Notes under the pieces: generated by a model | The model's database searches: none | Seen by the model: the letters and a program-made list of their open reading frames with translations, nothing else | What the model was told of the DNA's origin: nothing | Program-made: the position numbers and the translations under genes | Shown here: one piece after another, positions 1,067 to 9,574 of the stretch | How positions within the stretch are numbered: the stretch's first letter is position 1 | Layout of the letters: the number at the start of each line of letters is the position of its first letter | DNA from: an uncultured Acidimicrobiaceae bacterium | GTDB lineage: Bacteria; Actinomycetota; Acidimicrobiia; Acidimicrobiales; Salinilacustritrichaceae | Assembly (NCBI GenBank): GCA_963811245.1 | Contig: CAWEQL010000008.1 | Location: forward strand, 8,134-72,133 | Direction: 5' to 3' | DNA length: 64,000 nucleotides

Positions 1067-1284
1067 TCAGCGGAAGTGGTCCTTGTGGCGGTGGGAGGCA
1101 AACGGGGCAAGGGCAAGGACGGCGGAGGAGATCCAAACGCCTGCTCCGATCTGGGCGTTGACGTTCATCCCGATGACCGGGCCGGCAATGAACGCGAGAG
1201 CGGCGAGCGCCCACACGGCGATTCGCAGCCGCTGGCTCCCGCGCTCGGGCCTGGGTGATCGGTCACGCTCGAGGTTTCGCTCAC
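1067..1284 (-). CDS. Small 2-TM membrane protein, probably the last gene of the suf operon (frameshifted near its start)
   Basis: Manual translation RLRIAVWALAALAFIAGPVIGMNVNAQIGAGVWISSAVLALAPFASHRHKDHFR*; a GTG start overlaps the sufT stop (GTGA) in another frame. Confidence 0.45.
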
Positions 1285-1849
1285 AGCAACCCGAGCTCGA
1301 GCTTGGTGGCGTCGGAGATCAGCGCCATGCTCCACGGAGGGTCGTAGACGAGGGTGACGTCGACTTCGTCGACGCCGGCTATCGCGGCGACCGCTCGGGC
1401 GGCGTCGTCGCGGAGGATGTCGCCCATGCCGCAGCCGGGTGCGGTCATGGTCATGTCGATCTCGATCCGACGCCGCCCGTCGTCGAGGTCGATCTCCTCG
1501 CAGCGGTAGACGAGCCCGAGGTCGACGATGCTGATGGGGATCTCGGGGTCGTAGACGCCTTGGAGCGCGTCGCTGGACCGATGCGATGTCGAACTCGGCG
1601 TTGTCGGCGGGGCGGCGGGCGACGGCAACGGCTGCTTCGGATGTGTCGAGTTCGATGCCGATGGCGTCGGCGTCGCTGCCGTCGATGCGGAGCAGTGTTC
1701 CCAGTCTCGGTCCGCACGGTGATGCTGGCACCGAGCTGTTGGACGATCTCGACCTCTCCGCCTGCGGTGAGGGCGACCCGCTCGCCGTGGGGGACGGTGA
1801 CCGCGTCGCAGTCTCGTCGGAGCGAGATGGGACTCCAGGCCCGGGTCAT
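1281..1849 (-). CDS. sufT: Fe-S cluster assembly protein SufT (DUF59/PaaD-like), two frameshifts
   Basis: VYDPEIPISIVDLGLVY, MTMTAPGCGMG, YDPPW motifs; N-terminal RDCDAVTVPHG..QQLGASITV domain spread over three frames. Confidence 0.9.
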
Positions 1850-3100
1850 CAGCTCGGTCCCGTCGTGATGGCGCGCTCTACCTGCATGCGAAGGGAGAGG
1901 GGCGTGATCTGGTCGGTGATCTCGCGCGCGAACGCTTCGACGAGCATGGATCGAGCCTGCGCCCGGGGGATGCCGCGGGATCGAAGGTAGAAGAGGGCGT
2001 CATCATCGAGGCGGCCGGTGGCCGAGCCGTGGTCGCAGCGGACGTCATCGGCGAAGATCTCGAGCCATGGTCGGCTGTTGATCTGCGCGGTGGGGGCCAG
2101 GAGGAGGTTGCGGTTGGTCTGGTGGGCGTCGGTGCCGACGGTGCCGGGGCGAACGATCACGTGCCCGAGGAAGGCCCCGCGGCCGTGGCCACCGACGAGA
2201 CCCTTGAAACGCTGCGTGCTGGTGCAGTGTGAGGCGGCGTGGTCGACGGTGACGACGGTGTCGTGTCGCTGCTCGTCGGTTGGCAGGTACAGGCCGTCGA
2301 GGTCGCAGCGGGCGCCTTCGTCGATGAAGGTGACGTCGATGTCGAGCCGGGAGGTGACCGCGCCACGGGTGACCGACGTGGACCGGGCGCGCGAGCTGCC
2401 GTGCTGCTCGAAGCGGAGCCGCCCGATGTGGGTGGCGTCGGAGGCCTCGTGCTGGAGCCGGTGGTGGGTCAGCGTCGGCGCGGTCGGCGAGGCGGATCGT
2501 GGTCGAGGCGTTGGTGATCGCGCGGCCGGGGAGACCGACGTAGGACTCGACCAGGTGGAAGGTGCTGTCGACACCGGCCTCCACGATCACCCGAGGGTGG
2601 GACACGGTGCGGTTCTCTTCTGGCACCGAGACGTGGACGATGTGGATCGGGCTGTCGATGCGTGCTCCGGGTTCGATCTGCACGACGACGACATCGGACG
2701 CAGCTGATCGGTTGAGCGCATCGAACCCGTCGACCGGGTCGCGGATCGGTGTCGTCAGGTAGTCGATGACGCCTTCGGTCAGGGATGTCGACGACCCGTA
2801 CCAGAGCCCAGGCGGCGGTTGGCCGGGGTCGGACAGGGCGGGAACGTGGGCGCCGTTGACGATGACGATCCGGGTCTGTCCGTGGCGGCCGGCGAGTTCG
2901 TCGATCGTCGGCCCGCTCACCGACGGGGTGGTGGCGGGATCGGCATCGGCCAGGTCTCGGGTGATCTCGGCGACCGGCGTGTGGAGCCATGCTTCCTCCT
3001 GGGCGCCGGGGAACCCGTGCTCGTCGAGCCACTGTCGAGCATGATCGGCGTCGCCAAGGGTTCGTGTCCGCTGACGCGAGGTTGCGGGTGCTGCGGTCAT
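1849..3100 (-). CDS. sufD: Fe-S cluster assembly protein SufD, frameshifted near 2480
   Basis: NSRPWLEIFADDVRCDHGSATGRLDDDALFYLRSRGI. Confidence 0.92.
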
Positions 3101-3842
3101 GACGATGTGCCTGCCGTCCCGTATCCCACGGTTTCGAGCTCGAGAGCCAGGGTGTGGTCGCCGGACCGGGTGATCCGCCCGCCGTCGAGGACGTGGACGC
3201 GGTCGGGTCGGACGAGTTCGAGCAGGCGGGGGTAGTGGGTGATGATCAGCATGGCCCGTTCCGGGCTGCGGAGGTCCTCGATGCCCTGGGCGACGACGCG
3301 GAGCGCGTCGATGTCGAGGCCGGAGTCGGTCTCGTCGAGGATGGCCAGTCGGGGTCGGAGCATGGACATCTGGAGGATCTCGTTGCGCTTCTTCTCGCCG
3401 CCGGAGAAGCCGTCGTTCACCGATCGGCTGAGGAACGCCGGGTCCATGTCCAGCCGGGCCATGTGCTCCTTGGCCTGGGCGAGGAAGTCGGTGGCGGCGA
3501 TCTCGTCCAGGCCGCGAGCGAGGCGGAGCGCGTTGACCGAGGTGCGCAGGAAGTACATGTTCCCGACCCCAGGGATCTCGATCGGGTACTGGAAGGCGAG
3601 GAACACGCCGGCGGCGGCCCGGTCCTCGGGGTCGAGGGCGAGCAGGTCGATGCCGTCGAGGGTGACGGTGCCGGTGACGGTCGTAGCCGTCACGGCCGGT
3701 GAGCACGTTGGACAGGGTGCTCTTGCCGGCGCCGTTCGGTCCCATGATGGCGTGGACCTCGCCGGCGACCGATGTCGAGGTCGAGGCCGTCGAGGATCGT
3801 CTTGCCGGCGATGGAGGCGTGGAGGTTCTCGATGTGCAGCAT
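3097..3842 (-). CDS. sufC: Fe-S cluster assembly ATPase SufC, two frameshifts
   Basis: MGPNGAGKST, AFQYPIEIPGV, FSGGEKKRNEILQ, LDETDSGLDIDAL. Confidence 0.95.
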
Positions 3843-5285
3843 CAGCCGACCGCCCCTTCCAGGGTGAGGCGCATGAGGGCCTGGGCCTCGACCGCGTACT
3901 CCATCGGGAGTTCGTCGAACACCTCGCGGCAGAACCCGTTGACGATCATCGACGTGGCGTCCTCCTCGCCGAGGCCGCGTTGGCGGCAGTAGAAGAGCTG
4001 GTCGTCGTCGATCTTCGAGGTCGACGCCTCGTGCTCGACCTGGGCGGTGTCGTTCTTCACCTCGATGTAGGGGAACGTGTGGGCGCCGCACTCGGAACCG
4101 ATCAGCAGCGAGTCGCAGCGGGTGTGGTTGCGGGCCCCGGTCGCCGACCGCAGCACCTTCACCAGCCCGCGGTAGGTGTTCTGGGCGTGACCGGCGGAGA
4201 TGCCCTTGGACAGGATCGTGCTGGTCGTGTTCTTGCCGATGTGGATCATCTTCGTGCCGGTGTCGGCCTGCTGATGACCGGTGGTCACGGCAACCGAGTA
4301 GAACTCGCCGACCGAGTCGTCGCCCTGGAGGATGACGCTCGGGTACTTCCAGGTGATGGCCGAGCCGGTCTCGACCTGGGTCCAGGAGATCTTGGCCCGG
4401 TTCCCGCACCGGCCGCGTTTGGTGACGAAGTTGTAGATGCCGCCGACGCCGTTCTCGTCGCCGGGGTACCAGTTCTGCACCGTCGAGTACTTCACGCTGG
4501 CGTCGTCGAGCGCGACGATCTCGACCACCGCAGCGTGGAGCTGGTTCTCGTCGCGCATCGGGGCCGTGCATCCCTCGAGGTAGCTGACGCTGGCCCCTTC
4601 TTCGGCGACGATCAGGGTGCGCTCGAACTGGCCGGTCTCGGCCGCGTTGATCCGGAAGTAGGTCGACAACTCCATCGGGCAACGCACGCCCTCGGGGACG
4701 AAGCAGAACGACCCGTCGGAGAACACCGCCGAGTTGAGCGTGGCGAAGAAGTTGTCGCGGAACGCCACGACCGAACCCAGGTAGCGGCGGACCAGGTCGG
4801 GGTGCTCGCGCACCGCCTCGGAGAACGAGCAGAAGATCACCCCGGCCTCGGCCAGCGTCGCCTTGAACGTGGTGGCGACCGAGACCGAGTCGATGATCGC
4901 GTCGACCGCCACGTGGTCACCCCGGCCAGGCGCTCCTGCTCGGCGAGGGAGATGCCGAGCTTGTCGAACGCGGCCCGGATCTCCGGGTCGACCTCATCGA
5001 GGCTCTCGGGCCCGGGCCCTTCGGCTTCGGCGCCGCCCAGTAGTGCATGTCCTGGTAGTCGATCGGCGGGTGGTGCACGTTCTGCCACGTCGGCGGCTCG
5101 AGCGTCAGGAAGTGGCGGAACGCGGCGAGACGCCACTCGAGCAGCCAGTCGGGTTCGTCGTTCTTGGCCGAGATGAGCCGAACGACGTCCTCGGTCAGCC
5201 CCTTCGGGGCCAGGTCGGTGTCGATGTCGCTGTGGAACCCGAAGGCGTACTCTCGCTCGACGAGCTCGTCGATGACGTCGGTCAT
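3842..5285 (-). CDS. sufB: Fe-S cluster assembly protein SufB, two frameshifts
   Basis: [45 protein letters not shown]. Confidence 0.95.
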
Positions 5286-8799: not shown

Positions 8800-9159
8800 A
8801 TGAGCGGCAACGTGTCACACGTCGACCTCATGCGATTCGCCAGAGCGCTGCAGACCGTGACGCTCGGACGCGACCTCGATGCCGTCCACAGTGAGCTGTG
8901 CTCACTGCGCAACGCGCTCGTTCAGCACATCCGAGACGAGGAACGGCACCTCCGCGAGGTCTCGCCCGCGGTCGCCGACGCGGTGCGTCGCGGGCAGAAG
9001 GATCTCCTTCGCGATATCGACGCAGTACTCGACCACTCCGACGGGGCCGACGACGAGTGTCGGTGTGTCTCGAAGGCGACGCACCTGACGAGATCGATTG
9101 CTCGGCAGGCGCGGCTCGAGAGCCATATGACCACCTCCGCCGATCGCCGCCGCCGATAG
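8800..9159 (+). CDS. Degenerate hemerythrin-like four-helix protein
   Basis: SH..HIRDEE first-half ligands; second-half His positions appear as GQ and QARLE. Confidence 0.5.
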   Translation: MSGNVSHVDLMRFARALQTVTLGRDLDAVHSELCSLRNALVQHIRDEERHLREVSPAVADAVRRGQKDLLRDIDAVLDHSDGADDECRCVSKATHLTRSIARQARLESHMTTSADRRRR

Positions 9160-9191
9160 CAGTGCGTGGCGATCCCGCGGACGAATCGCTC

Positions 9192-9521
9192 TCAGGCAGC
9201 TGCCTCCTGCGGGGCGCCGGTGTTGACCGGGGCGATGGCGTCGGGTGTGCCCGGCATGCCCACGGACGCCTCGGCTGCGGCGATGGCCGCCTCGGCGCGA
9301 ACGGCGGCGAGGATCGCTCCCATCATGCCTCCGAAACCAGGACCGCCCCAGACGGCGGCGAAGAGGCCGACGCCGACAGCCGGGACCAACTGCGCCCCCG
9401 CGTACAGCATCACCACGGTGACGCCGACGGTCATCGCGACGGTAGCGATGATCGTGCCCGTGACCGCTCCTCGAATCGCCGCTCGCTCCACTGCGCCGTC
9501 ACTTCGATCGATGTCCTGCAT
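9192..9521 (-). CDS. Small Gly-rich 2-TM membrane protein
   Basis: Two hydrophobic helices and WGGPGFGGMMG; GAGGAG RBS. Confidence 0.7.
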   Translation of the reverse strand: MQDIDRSDGAVERAAIRGAVTGTIIATVAMTVGVTVVMLYAGAQLVPAVGVGLFAAVWGGPGFGGMMGAILAAVRAEAAIAAAEASVGMPGTPDAIAPVNTGAPQEAAA

Positions 9522-9550
9522 GGCTGTTCGCTCCTCGTCCACGAAATCGG

Positions 9551-9574
9551 TTTCTCTAGTGAACACTAGATGAA
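9551..9574. promoter_or_regulatory. Operator TCTAG-N6-CTAGA (site 3)
   Basis: TTTCTCTAGtgaacaCTAGATGAA about 30 bp upstream of the 9521 start. Confidence 0.8.

Follow-up and report, generated by a model that had tools for sequence, protein, structure and literature searches.

Within the large SufR-like (COG2345) family of transcription factors, only SufR and ArnR have known targets (bioRxiv 10.64898/2025.12.26.696629). The family is marked by an R-x-H recognition helix, a central GRP AT-hook and three cysteines with a ligand three residues after the second of them, and its operators are palindromes whose A/T-rich flanks are required for binding; in Mycobacterium tuberculosis SufR the sensor residues are C179, C192, E195 (a cluster ligand) and C220 (bioRxiv 10.64898/2025.12.26.696629). 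ArnR of Corynebacterium glutamicum has Cys179, 193 and 223 together with a conserved His and binds one [4Fe-4S] cluster per subunit. Its cluster is nearly inert to O2, nitrosylation by nitric oxide (NO) abolishes its DNA binding, its sensor domain resembles TRAPPC3, and it represses narKGHJI and hmp (PMC12343034). Here we describe a putative regulon of this family in a 64,000-nucleotide stretch of DNA from an uncultured Acidimicrobiaceae bacterium (GenBank assembly GCA_963811245.1, contig CAWEQL010000008.1, which we call C8), referred to below as the window (C8:8134-72133). An 8.5-kb block within it carries a palindrome, TCTAG-N6-CTAGA, at each of its promoter regions and encodes its own three-cysteine regulator, which we call REG, together with iron-sulfur (Fe-S) cluster assembly genes of the SUF type, group III truncated globins and other genes linked to NO. 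We consider it likely, with a probability of roughly 0.6, that this is an ArnR-like, SufR-family regulon in which REG represses through the palindrome with NO as the likely signal.

By published description REG is close to ArnR: both have an N-terminal winged helix-turn-helix (wHTH) of ArsR/MarR type, a dimerisation helix and a C-terminal sensor with three cysteines (TRAPPC3-like in ArnR and, by fold resemblance of the model, in REG), in both the first cysteine pair is spaced C-X13-C with a conserved His nearby, and a dimer, predicted or shown, and control of NO-handling haem proteins, putative for REG, are common to the two. They differ in that the third cysteine follows after 31 residues in REG and after 29 in ArnR (C-X13-C-X29-C), and the host of REG belongs to another class of Actinomycetota. 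The candidate targets of REG are nirK, group III globins, RIC, a second SUF operon (suf2) and membrane proteins, whereas those of ArnR are nar and hmp, neither of which lies beside any site in this genome or in its genus. With SufR of Mycobacterium, Streptomyces and cyanobacteria REG shares the GRP AT-hook, the R-x-H helix, the three cysteines with a ligand three residues after the second, an A/T-flanked palindrome and, putatively, control of a suf operon. In contrast to SufR, the suf operon linked to REG is an accessory sufBCD-sufT while the housekeeping one has no site, the fourth ligand would be His instead of Glu, and most of the candidate regulon consists of nitrite and NO genes. That gene content agrees with the core NO-responsive regulons described elsewhere, which hold dnrN/ytfE, nirK, globins and TehB-type domains (PMC1274295). 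The NsrR, NnrR, DNR and NorR regulons of proteobacteria and Firmicutes likewise bring together dnrN/ytfE (RIC), nirK, globins, TehB/YeaR-type domains and membrane proteins, genes that comparative genomics had placed behind one palindromic site (PMC1274295), but REG is neither Rrf2, CRP/FNR nor sigma-54 dependent, and its set has no hmp, hcp or nor and does include a SUF operon.

The palindrome and its positions

The exact pattern TCTAG-N6-CTAGA occurs three times in the window (Table 1), where none is expected (0 matches in 100 dinucleotide-preserving shuffles), and the same three places are the only ones in the whole assembly (3.93 Mb in 22 contigs, 71% G+C). CTAG itself is rare, with 10 copies in the window against 40.5 expected, seven of them within the three palindromes, and 401 copies across the assembly. 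The first-pass annotation, made from the letters of the window, had reported these positions and the scarcity of CTAG, and had placed the best palindrome upstream of the operon of the regulator; all of this is borne out, and site 2, with half-sites ATTTATCTAG and CTAGATAAAG, is the top matrix match of the entire genome.

The three sites lie between divergent or single starts, at 27-36 nt from the start codons and with Shine-Dalgarno-like sequences between, so that they sit where core promoters must be. From site 1 it is 27 nt to the start of sufB (ATG at 5285) and 31 nt to that of globin 1 (ATG at 5360), and site 2 is 36 nt from the small open reading frame (ORF) that precedes REG and 27 nt from the ATG at 8800; each is central in an intergenic region of just 74-79 bp shared by two divergent genes. 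Together with the single start at site 3, these distances agree with the five transcription directions that had been proposed. A loose terminator-like pattern was flagged at site 1, and a terminator role was rejected since a start codon flanks the site on either side, with the two genes diverging from it. An APH-type kinase at 9696 was considered as a sixth target and set aside, as its distance from site 3 is 125 nt and relatives do not have it next to the motif.

A matrix of 28 columns was built from 29 sites in the window and 20 orthologous loci whose core had at most one mismatch; the A/T positions outside the core had no part in choosing the sites. The consensus, TATATTTCTAGTATATACTAGAAATATA, is a palindrome with A/T-rich flanks. 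These flank positions carry 1.5-1.8 bits, and the N6 spacer is much less conserved than half-sites and flanks, at 0.3-0.9 bits per position.

A SufR-like regulator beside the best site

Three invariant C-terminal cysteines, C172, C186 and C218, confirm the first-pass description of a helix-turn-helix regulator with a three-cysteine C-terminus. Across 38 REG sequences R57, Q58, H59, G80, R81 and H189 are invariant as well, and P82 is conserved in at least 90%. The sensor spacing is C-X13-C-X2-H-X28-C, or C-X13-C-X31-C by cysteines alone. REG thus carries the defining marks of the SufR-like family, namely an ArsR-type wHTH, an R-x-H recognition helix, a GRP AT-hook, three sensor cysteines with H189 three residues after the second, and an A/T-flanked palindromic operator, where the correspondence of residues with SufR is by position in the fold and the motif definitions are those of bioRxiv 10.64898/2025.12.26.696629. 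The earlier analogy with SufR and ArnR appears from these features to be largely right: REG is probably a member of the SufR-like [4Fe-4S] transcription factors and nearest in design to ArnR. A Pfam search gave no match of REG to the Rrf2 domain (PF02082), and its homologues are numerous, unnamed and from Acidimicrobiales metagenome bins.

An AlphaFold2 model of REG (predicted local distance difference test score, pLDDT, 86) has a wHTH, a long dimerisation helix and an alpha/beta sensor. Foldseek matched the N-terminal part to ArsR-type regulators (2p4w, E 2.8e-4, also SmtB and CzrA) and the C-terminal part to TRAPPC3/Bet3-like structures (7b6d_G and 6aq3, template modelling score 0.37-0.41 over about 155 columns); by sequence, REG matched ArsR-type helix-turn-helix proteins only in the PDB. 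When two copies of REG were predicted together the score was 0.42, against 0.00 for the best of three controls, a mark that 20 of 30 proteins solved as one-chain pairs also reached, as did 1 of 23 solved as single chains. Contacts agreed between runs to at least 82%, with a partner pLDDT of at least 77, and the predicted interface consists of helix 100-119 and the loop 174-185 between two of the sensor cysteines. The prediction supports dimerisation of REG, short of proof.

Further sites in the genome

A matrix scan of the genome gave six matches above 14 bits and none besides, and all six adjoin regulon-type genes or a paralogous regulator; the motif is thus not common at unrelated loci. Three are the sites in the window. 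A fourth (C10:309999, 37.4 bits) precedes, at a distance of 17 nt, a third globin of group III type joined to the di-iron Fe-S repair protein RIC/YtfE (TIGR03652 228.8 bits, cut-off 204.7), and a fifth (C7:766079, 31.0 bits) lies between a DUF302 gene and nirK, the gene for a copper nitrite reductase, which has an N-terminal cupredoxin domain (TIGR02376 324.6 bits, cut-off 296.3). The nirK site is 79 nt from the ATG, farther than at the other targets. Because nirK and globin-RIC carry the same site on other contigs, the 8.5-kb block is not the self-contained module that it had been taken for; from its sites it is best described as the centre of a small regulon that extends over the genome and takes in nirK and RIC.

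The third globin and RIC/YtfE form one open frame of 393 codons with no internal stop (L051:5033-6211, equal to C10:310032-311210; L numbers denote loci taken from genomes). They are separate genes in relatives, and the single frame here is either a real fusion or an assembly indel.

The sixth match (C21:128783, 24.9 bits; L053 about 5784-5811) is a palindrome, TGTAGTTC-N12-GAACTACA, upstream of a REG paralogue (C21:128078-128742, minus strand) that is 45-49% identical to REG and itself split over several frames. This palindrome has the TTC-N12-GAA frame of the main operator with different inner bases. The paralogue suggests a second regulon with diverged specificity.

Conservation in relatives

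REG orthologues are present in 17 of 22 other genomes of the genus (58-85% identity) and in several other families of the order (44-60%). In nearly all of 20 loci taken with wide flanks a site (at most 2 mismatches or more than 16 bits) lies upstream of REG or its operon. The genus genomes hold 0-4 copies of the exact pattern each, 25 in total in 12 genomes, and 21 of the 25 precede the divergent sufB2 and globin-1 genes, a NirK-like gene, the membrane protein, RIC, REG, yeaR-globin or the two small proteins. This match of gene families holds despite shuffled gene order, and in complete genomes the sufB2-globin locus is far from REG; the arrangement of sufB, site and globin recurs in four relatives (G009, G017, G003 and G015, where G numbers denote relatives' genomes and G000 the present one). 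In several relatives the NirK-like gene behind the motif falls below the TIGR02376 cut-off, at 155-250 bits. Two of the remaining four sites are beside copper or DUF2249 genes, one is unexplained, and one, at a contig start in G013, lies 127 bp upstream of the globin-1 site with no identified gene.

In relatives an exact site also precedes a tandem DUF2249 protein (145.8 bits; L059:1020-1454, minus strand), and another precedes a divergent pair of a CopD-like membrane protein and a cupredoxin lipoprotein (L031:6697-7131, minus, and 7211-7585, plus), which hints that copper supply for NirK is part of the regulon.

Of the genus genomes, 12 of the 18 that have REG contain the exact motif, as do 0 of the 5 that lack REG, and the nirK family is present in 14 of 18 and 1 of 5, respectively; kin genomes are not independent, so these counts overstate the support and are supportive evidence, not tests. 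Beyond the genus, 80 further loci came from a pattern scan of a collection of species representatives and belong to Iamiaceae, Ilumatobacteraceae, Microthrixaceae and unclassified Acidimicrobiia. Their 608 kb contain 130 sites above 18 bits, a density about 140 times that of the genome of the window, with a site within 450 bp upstream of REG in 42 of the 80, and as in the genus the neighbouring genes are globins, RIC, NirK-like genes, the membrane protein and suf2. At one locus from another family of the order (L050 about 9804, genome G056) the operator before the REG orthologue reads TGTAG-N6-CTACA, with mirror-image changes in the two half-sites, which is what a co-evolving dimeric factor predicts. 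The motif thus accompanies REG orthologues across the genus and in other families of Acidimicrobiia.

Two isolates with complete genomes, both among the 80 loci, Aquihabitans sp. G128 (L084, NZ_CP077604.1) and Actinospongicola halichondriae Hal317 (L136, NZ_CP171622.1), carry REG with matrix sites and globin or RIC neighbours. Hal317 has no second suf operon, and its sites are degenerate only.

The motif, its rarity, its positions, its conservation beside REG and the same gene families, and the family marks of REG are all direct observations. They sustain the core of the first-pass proposal, that one operator and one cysteine-rich helix-turn-helix regulator tie SUF genes, group III globins and NO-linked genes together, with the regulation itself being what the analysis points to.

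Proposed mechanism and alternatives

We infer from the comparison with the described systems that REG would bind a cluster and DNA, that it would repress rather than activate, and that NO would be its signal. A cluster-loaded REG dimer would bind wwTCTAG-N6-CTAGAww, with its winged helices contacting the half-sites and its GRP AT-hooks contacting the A/T-rich flanks, and because the sites are 27-36 nt upstream of starts a dimer bound there would be expected to mask the core promoters and so to repress. Once its cluster is nitrosylated or lost, REG would leave the DNA, and this release would switch on the REG operon, the second SufBCD-SufT scaffold, three group III globins (one of them fused to YeaR), the unnamed membrane protein and two small proteins, and elsewhere in the genome RIC/YtfE and nirK. 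The nirK product is a source of NO. NO is the most likely signal in our analysis because the gene content (nirK, globins, RIC, a YeaR/TehB-type domain and DUF2249) matches that of NO-responsive regulons.

A number of observations weigh against this proposal. DNA binding by REG, its cluster content and the induction of its targets are predictions from sequence and models, and REG was likened to ArnR and SufR through published descriptions and not through direct sequence alignment. Against the cyanobacterial SufR model TIGR02702 it aligns over the helix-turn-helix only (residues 25-87), at 19.9 bits against a cut-off of 178.8, and its operator TCTAG-N6-CTAGA differs from the A/T-only site of ArnR at the hmp promoter, TAATCTAATTAAATAAATCC. 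A scan for sigma-70 promoters, made with consensus hexamers only, found none, so that promoter overlap is argued from distances only. To these may be added the dependence among the genomes counted above, the orthologous loci in Acidimicrobiia with degenerate sites only or with none that exceeds 18 bits (11 of 80, and in addition the yeaR-globin-suf2 operon of G001, whose single site over 16 bits is upstream of REG), and the suf2 genes of the present genome, which are broken in the assembly. Rrf2-family genes occur elsewhere in the genome and an NsrR-type regulator is possible among them; because of these we do not claim REG as the only NO regulator.

The reading closest to ours, unlikely yet to be taken seriously, keeps the regulator, the operator and the regulon and takes the signal to be the general status of Fe-S clusters (demand, damage by O2 or peroxide, or shortage of iron or sulfur), as for SufR; any loss of the cluster would then derepress suf2, RIC and the rest, and NO would not be sensed specifically. 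It is kept alive by the SUF scaffold within the regulon, which also holds an Fe-S repair protein, and the position of the fourth ligand in REG follows the pattern of SufR, the founding member, which reports cluster supply and controls suf (bioRxiv 10.64898/2025.12.26.696629). Yet nirK, the three truncated globins, the YeaR domain and DUF2249 are what one expects of nitrite and NO regulons and not of the control of Fe-S supply (PMC1274295), the housekeeping suf operon on contig C13 has no site, and the cluster of ArnR is nearly inert to O2 while reactive with NO (PMC12343034). That REG binds the palindrome and activates, or acts both ways at different promoters, is improbable. Activation in response to NO is the rule for nirK in denitrifiers with NnrR-type regulators (PMC1274295), the nirK site here is at 79 nt from its ATG, beyond the distance at other targets, and the consensus scan, which returned no promoter hexamers, leaves the geometry of site and promoter unfixed. 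Against this, both SufR and ArnR repress in the cluster-bound form (bioRxiv 10.64898/2025.12.26.696629; PMC12343034), and sites 1 and 2 are central in divergent regions of 74-79 bp, with sites at 27-36 nt from the starts.

We regard as very improbable that the palindrome belongs to a different factor with REG as one of its targets, or that it has no part in regulation and is a structural or repeat element. The pairing of palindrome and REG is drawn from sequence, Rrf2-family genes could supply such a factor, and the terminator-like pattern at site 1 would suit a structural element. In most of the roughly 100 loci examined, REG or its operon nevertheless has a site directly upstream, whatever the neighbours, and the exact site is missing from all five genus genomes without REG and present in 12 of 18 with it. 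The symmetric change in L050 and the related palindrome that the C21 paralogue has of its own also count against this reading; conservation is in half-sites and flanks and much less in the spacer, and the sites are between divergent starts and not at gene ends.

Beyond repression by REG with NO as the signal, a wider proposal can be made, to which we would give somewhat less than even odds. According to it the master NO switch of Acidimicrobiia would be a SufR-family [4Fe-4S] protein and not NsrR, NnrR or NorR; nitrite reduction by nirK would be coupled to group III globins, as scavengers of NO, and to a SufBCD-SufT scaffold that is reserved for stress and has no desulfurase of its own; and the 12-helix membrane protein, the small protein with its H/C/C/C residues and the small Gly-rich membrane protein would be new players in NO handling.

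Gene content of the block

The frames of the block were read by codon-position G+C, Pfam and NCBIfam (Table 1).

Table 1. Operator sites and genes of the 8.5-kb block, in window coordinates.
Feature	Position	Strand	Remarks
sufT-like	1281..1849	-	N-terminal domain and DUF59/FeS_assembly_P; PF01883 62.1 bits on 1284-1628; at least one frame change
sufD, second SUF operon	1849..3121	-	PF01458 SUFBD_core 200.9 bits; one frame change near 2470-2489
sufC (ABC ATPase)	3112..3857	-	Two frame changes; G015 SufC matches in three frames, 72-86% identity
sufB, second SUF operon	3842..5285	-	PF01458 281.6 bits
Operator site 1, TCTAG-N6-CTAGA	5313..5328		A/T-rich flanks; centre of the 74-bp divergent intergenic region of sufB and globin 1; 35.4 bits (matrix)
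Globin 1, group III truncated haemoglobin	5360..5806	+	PF01152 27.8 bits, cut-off 21
YeaR/DUF1971 fused to second group III-type globin	5817..6565	+	PF09313 43.1 bits
Polytopic membrane protein, about 398 aa	6621..7817	+	Unnamed family
REG, ArsR-type wHTH regulator	7900..8589	-	PF12840 35.4 bits (cut-off 27); PF01022 27.7 bits
44-codon ORF	8586..8720	-	Stop overlaps REG start (GTGA)
Operator site 2, best palindrome, ATTTATCTAG...CTAGATAAAG	8757..8772		Between REG operon and gene at 8800; 39.7 bits
Small helical protein, 119 aa	8800..9159	+	Invariant H30, C34, C87, C89, E107 (7 orthologues)
Small membrane protein, 109 aa	9192..9521	-	Two hydrophobic helices, Gly-rich segment; no Pfam or NCBIfam match
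Operator site 3	9555..9570		33 nt upstream of ATG (9521) of small membrane protein; 33.8 bits

The second SUF operon consists of sufB-sufC-sufD-sufT and has no cysteine desulfurase or sulfur-transfer gene. The SufBD core, the SufC ATPase and DUF59 occur in operon order, collinear with an intact operon in G015, so the SufBCD-T label stands as to families and order; what did not hold is the integrity of the genes, as all four reading frames are broken in the assembly. Compared with the G015 operon each gene is split between two or three frames, and the 4 kb contain six frame changes or more: the sufT-like gene in two (1849-1697 and 1571-1284), sufD in two, and sufB in three, at 93% identity and with two 1-nt deletions relative to G009, near 4913 and 5006, in a DNA alignment. 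Only some members of the genus have the operon (G000, G009, G015, G001, G017 and G003, and not G014). A housekeeping suf operon is located on contig C13, where the matrix scan gave no operator site; its SufB is 48% identical to that of suf2. REG is not beside the housekeeping operon, as a classical sufR would be, in G014, G017 or G000.

The frame changes in suf2 and yeaR-globin are probably indel errors of the assembly, which is the simplest reading because such breaks are assembly-wide and completeness is just 76% despite only 22 contigs. A frame-tracking model of five contigs found 91 of 391 coding segments with no stop nearby, against 9 of 217 in loci of relatives, and frameshift-like breaks are common throughout the assembly, in the window for example at 1281-5285, near 6497 and at 35527-35801. 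Real decay of suf2 in this strain may be the alternative. A search of public sequencing runs for the locus gave no run with more than 0.14 of the sampled words, and gene calls across the window are to be read with indel errors in mind.

Globin 1 has its closest solved structure in 2ig3, a "Group III truncated haemoglobin" (E 9e-14), ahead of the group I HbN (E 0.009). The globin part of the YeaR fusion is 40% identical to globin 1, and intact fused orthologues are present in G016 and G001. The present copy has a 1-nt frame change near 6497, with the conserved C-terminus in another frame and the true stop at 6563-6565.

Two of the names in the first-pass annotation did not survive. The 398-aa membrane protein had been called NnrS-like; it has no match to NnrS (PF05940) or to any other Pfam family at E up to 0.1, nor to NCBIfam, and in an Atlas embedding search the closest clusters were unnamed ones from Actinomycetota, with an NnrS cluster at rank 59 (score 0.87), so that the name is a lead and not a finding. 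Orthologues lie behind the motif in G018, G020 and G012, often adjoining NirK-like genes. The 119-aa protein had been called hemerythrin-like; it scores below both cut-offs (PF01814 17.6 bits against 25.3, TIGR02481 17.8 against 51.75) and has no relative in the PDB. Its only invariant His is H30 and its only invariant Glu E107, next to three Cys, and across seven orthologues there is no di-iron ligand set; by its sequence it is a Cys-rich helical protein for which the hemerythrin name is not supported.

Orthologues of the 109-aa membrane protein lie behind the motif, upstream of REG or of yeaR-globin, in G013, G009 and G016. The 44-codon ORF is an internally shortened form of an acidic protein of about 95 aa, with the N- and C-terminal ends kept and the middle gone; the full-length form lies upstream of REG in G013, G022 and G016 (e.g. 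L031:5500-5784, minus strand), and tblastn matches were obtained in G013 and G022. A relationship of this protein to carrier proteins was considered and dropped, the full-length form having no Pfam match.

Significance

The kind of regulator is already known from ArnR and SufR, while the operator and the regulon appear to be undescribed: in the papers searched, neither the one nor the other has been reported, nor has any NO regulator of Acidimicrobiia. The regulon would be the third for the SufR-like family, and it is conserved across a whole class. Because the operator is sharp and has few copies per genome, the locus is suited to testing both how these proteins read DNA, with helix and AT-hook, and which signal they sense, and such experiments are feasible in two carriers that have been cultured, Aquihabitans sp. 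G128 and Actinospongicola halichondriae Hal317. It would also place group III globins, YeaR-globin fusions, DUF2249 and a number of unnamed proteins in a physiological setting, and it points to a second SUF scaffold that some bacteria would maintain expressly against nitrosative stress. Acidimicrobiia abound in soils, sediments and sea water, and most of them have not been cultured. For this little-studied group the regulon would provide a circuit for defence against NO and the first regulatory model for the handling of nitrite and NO.

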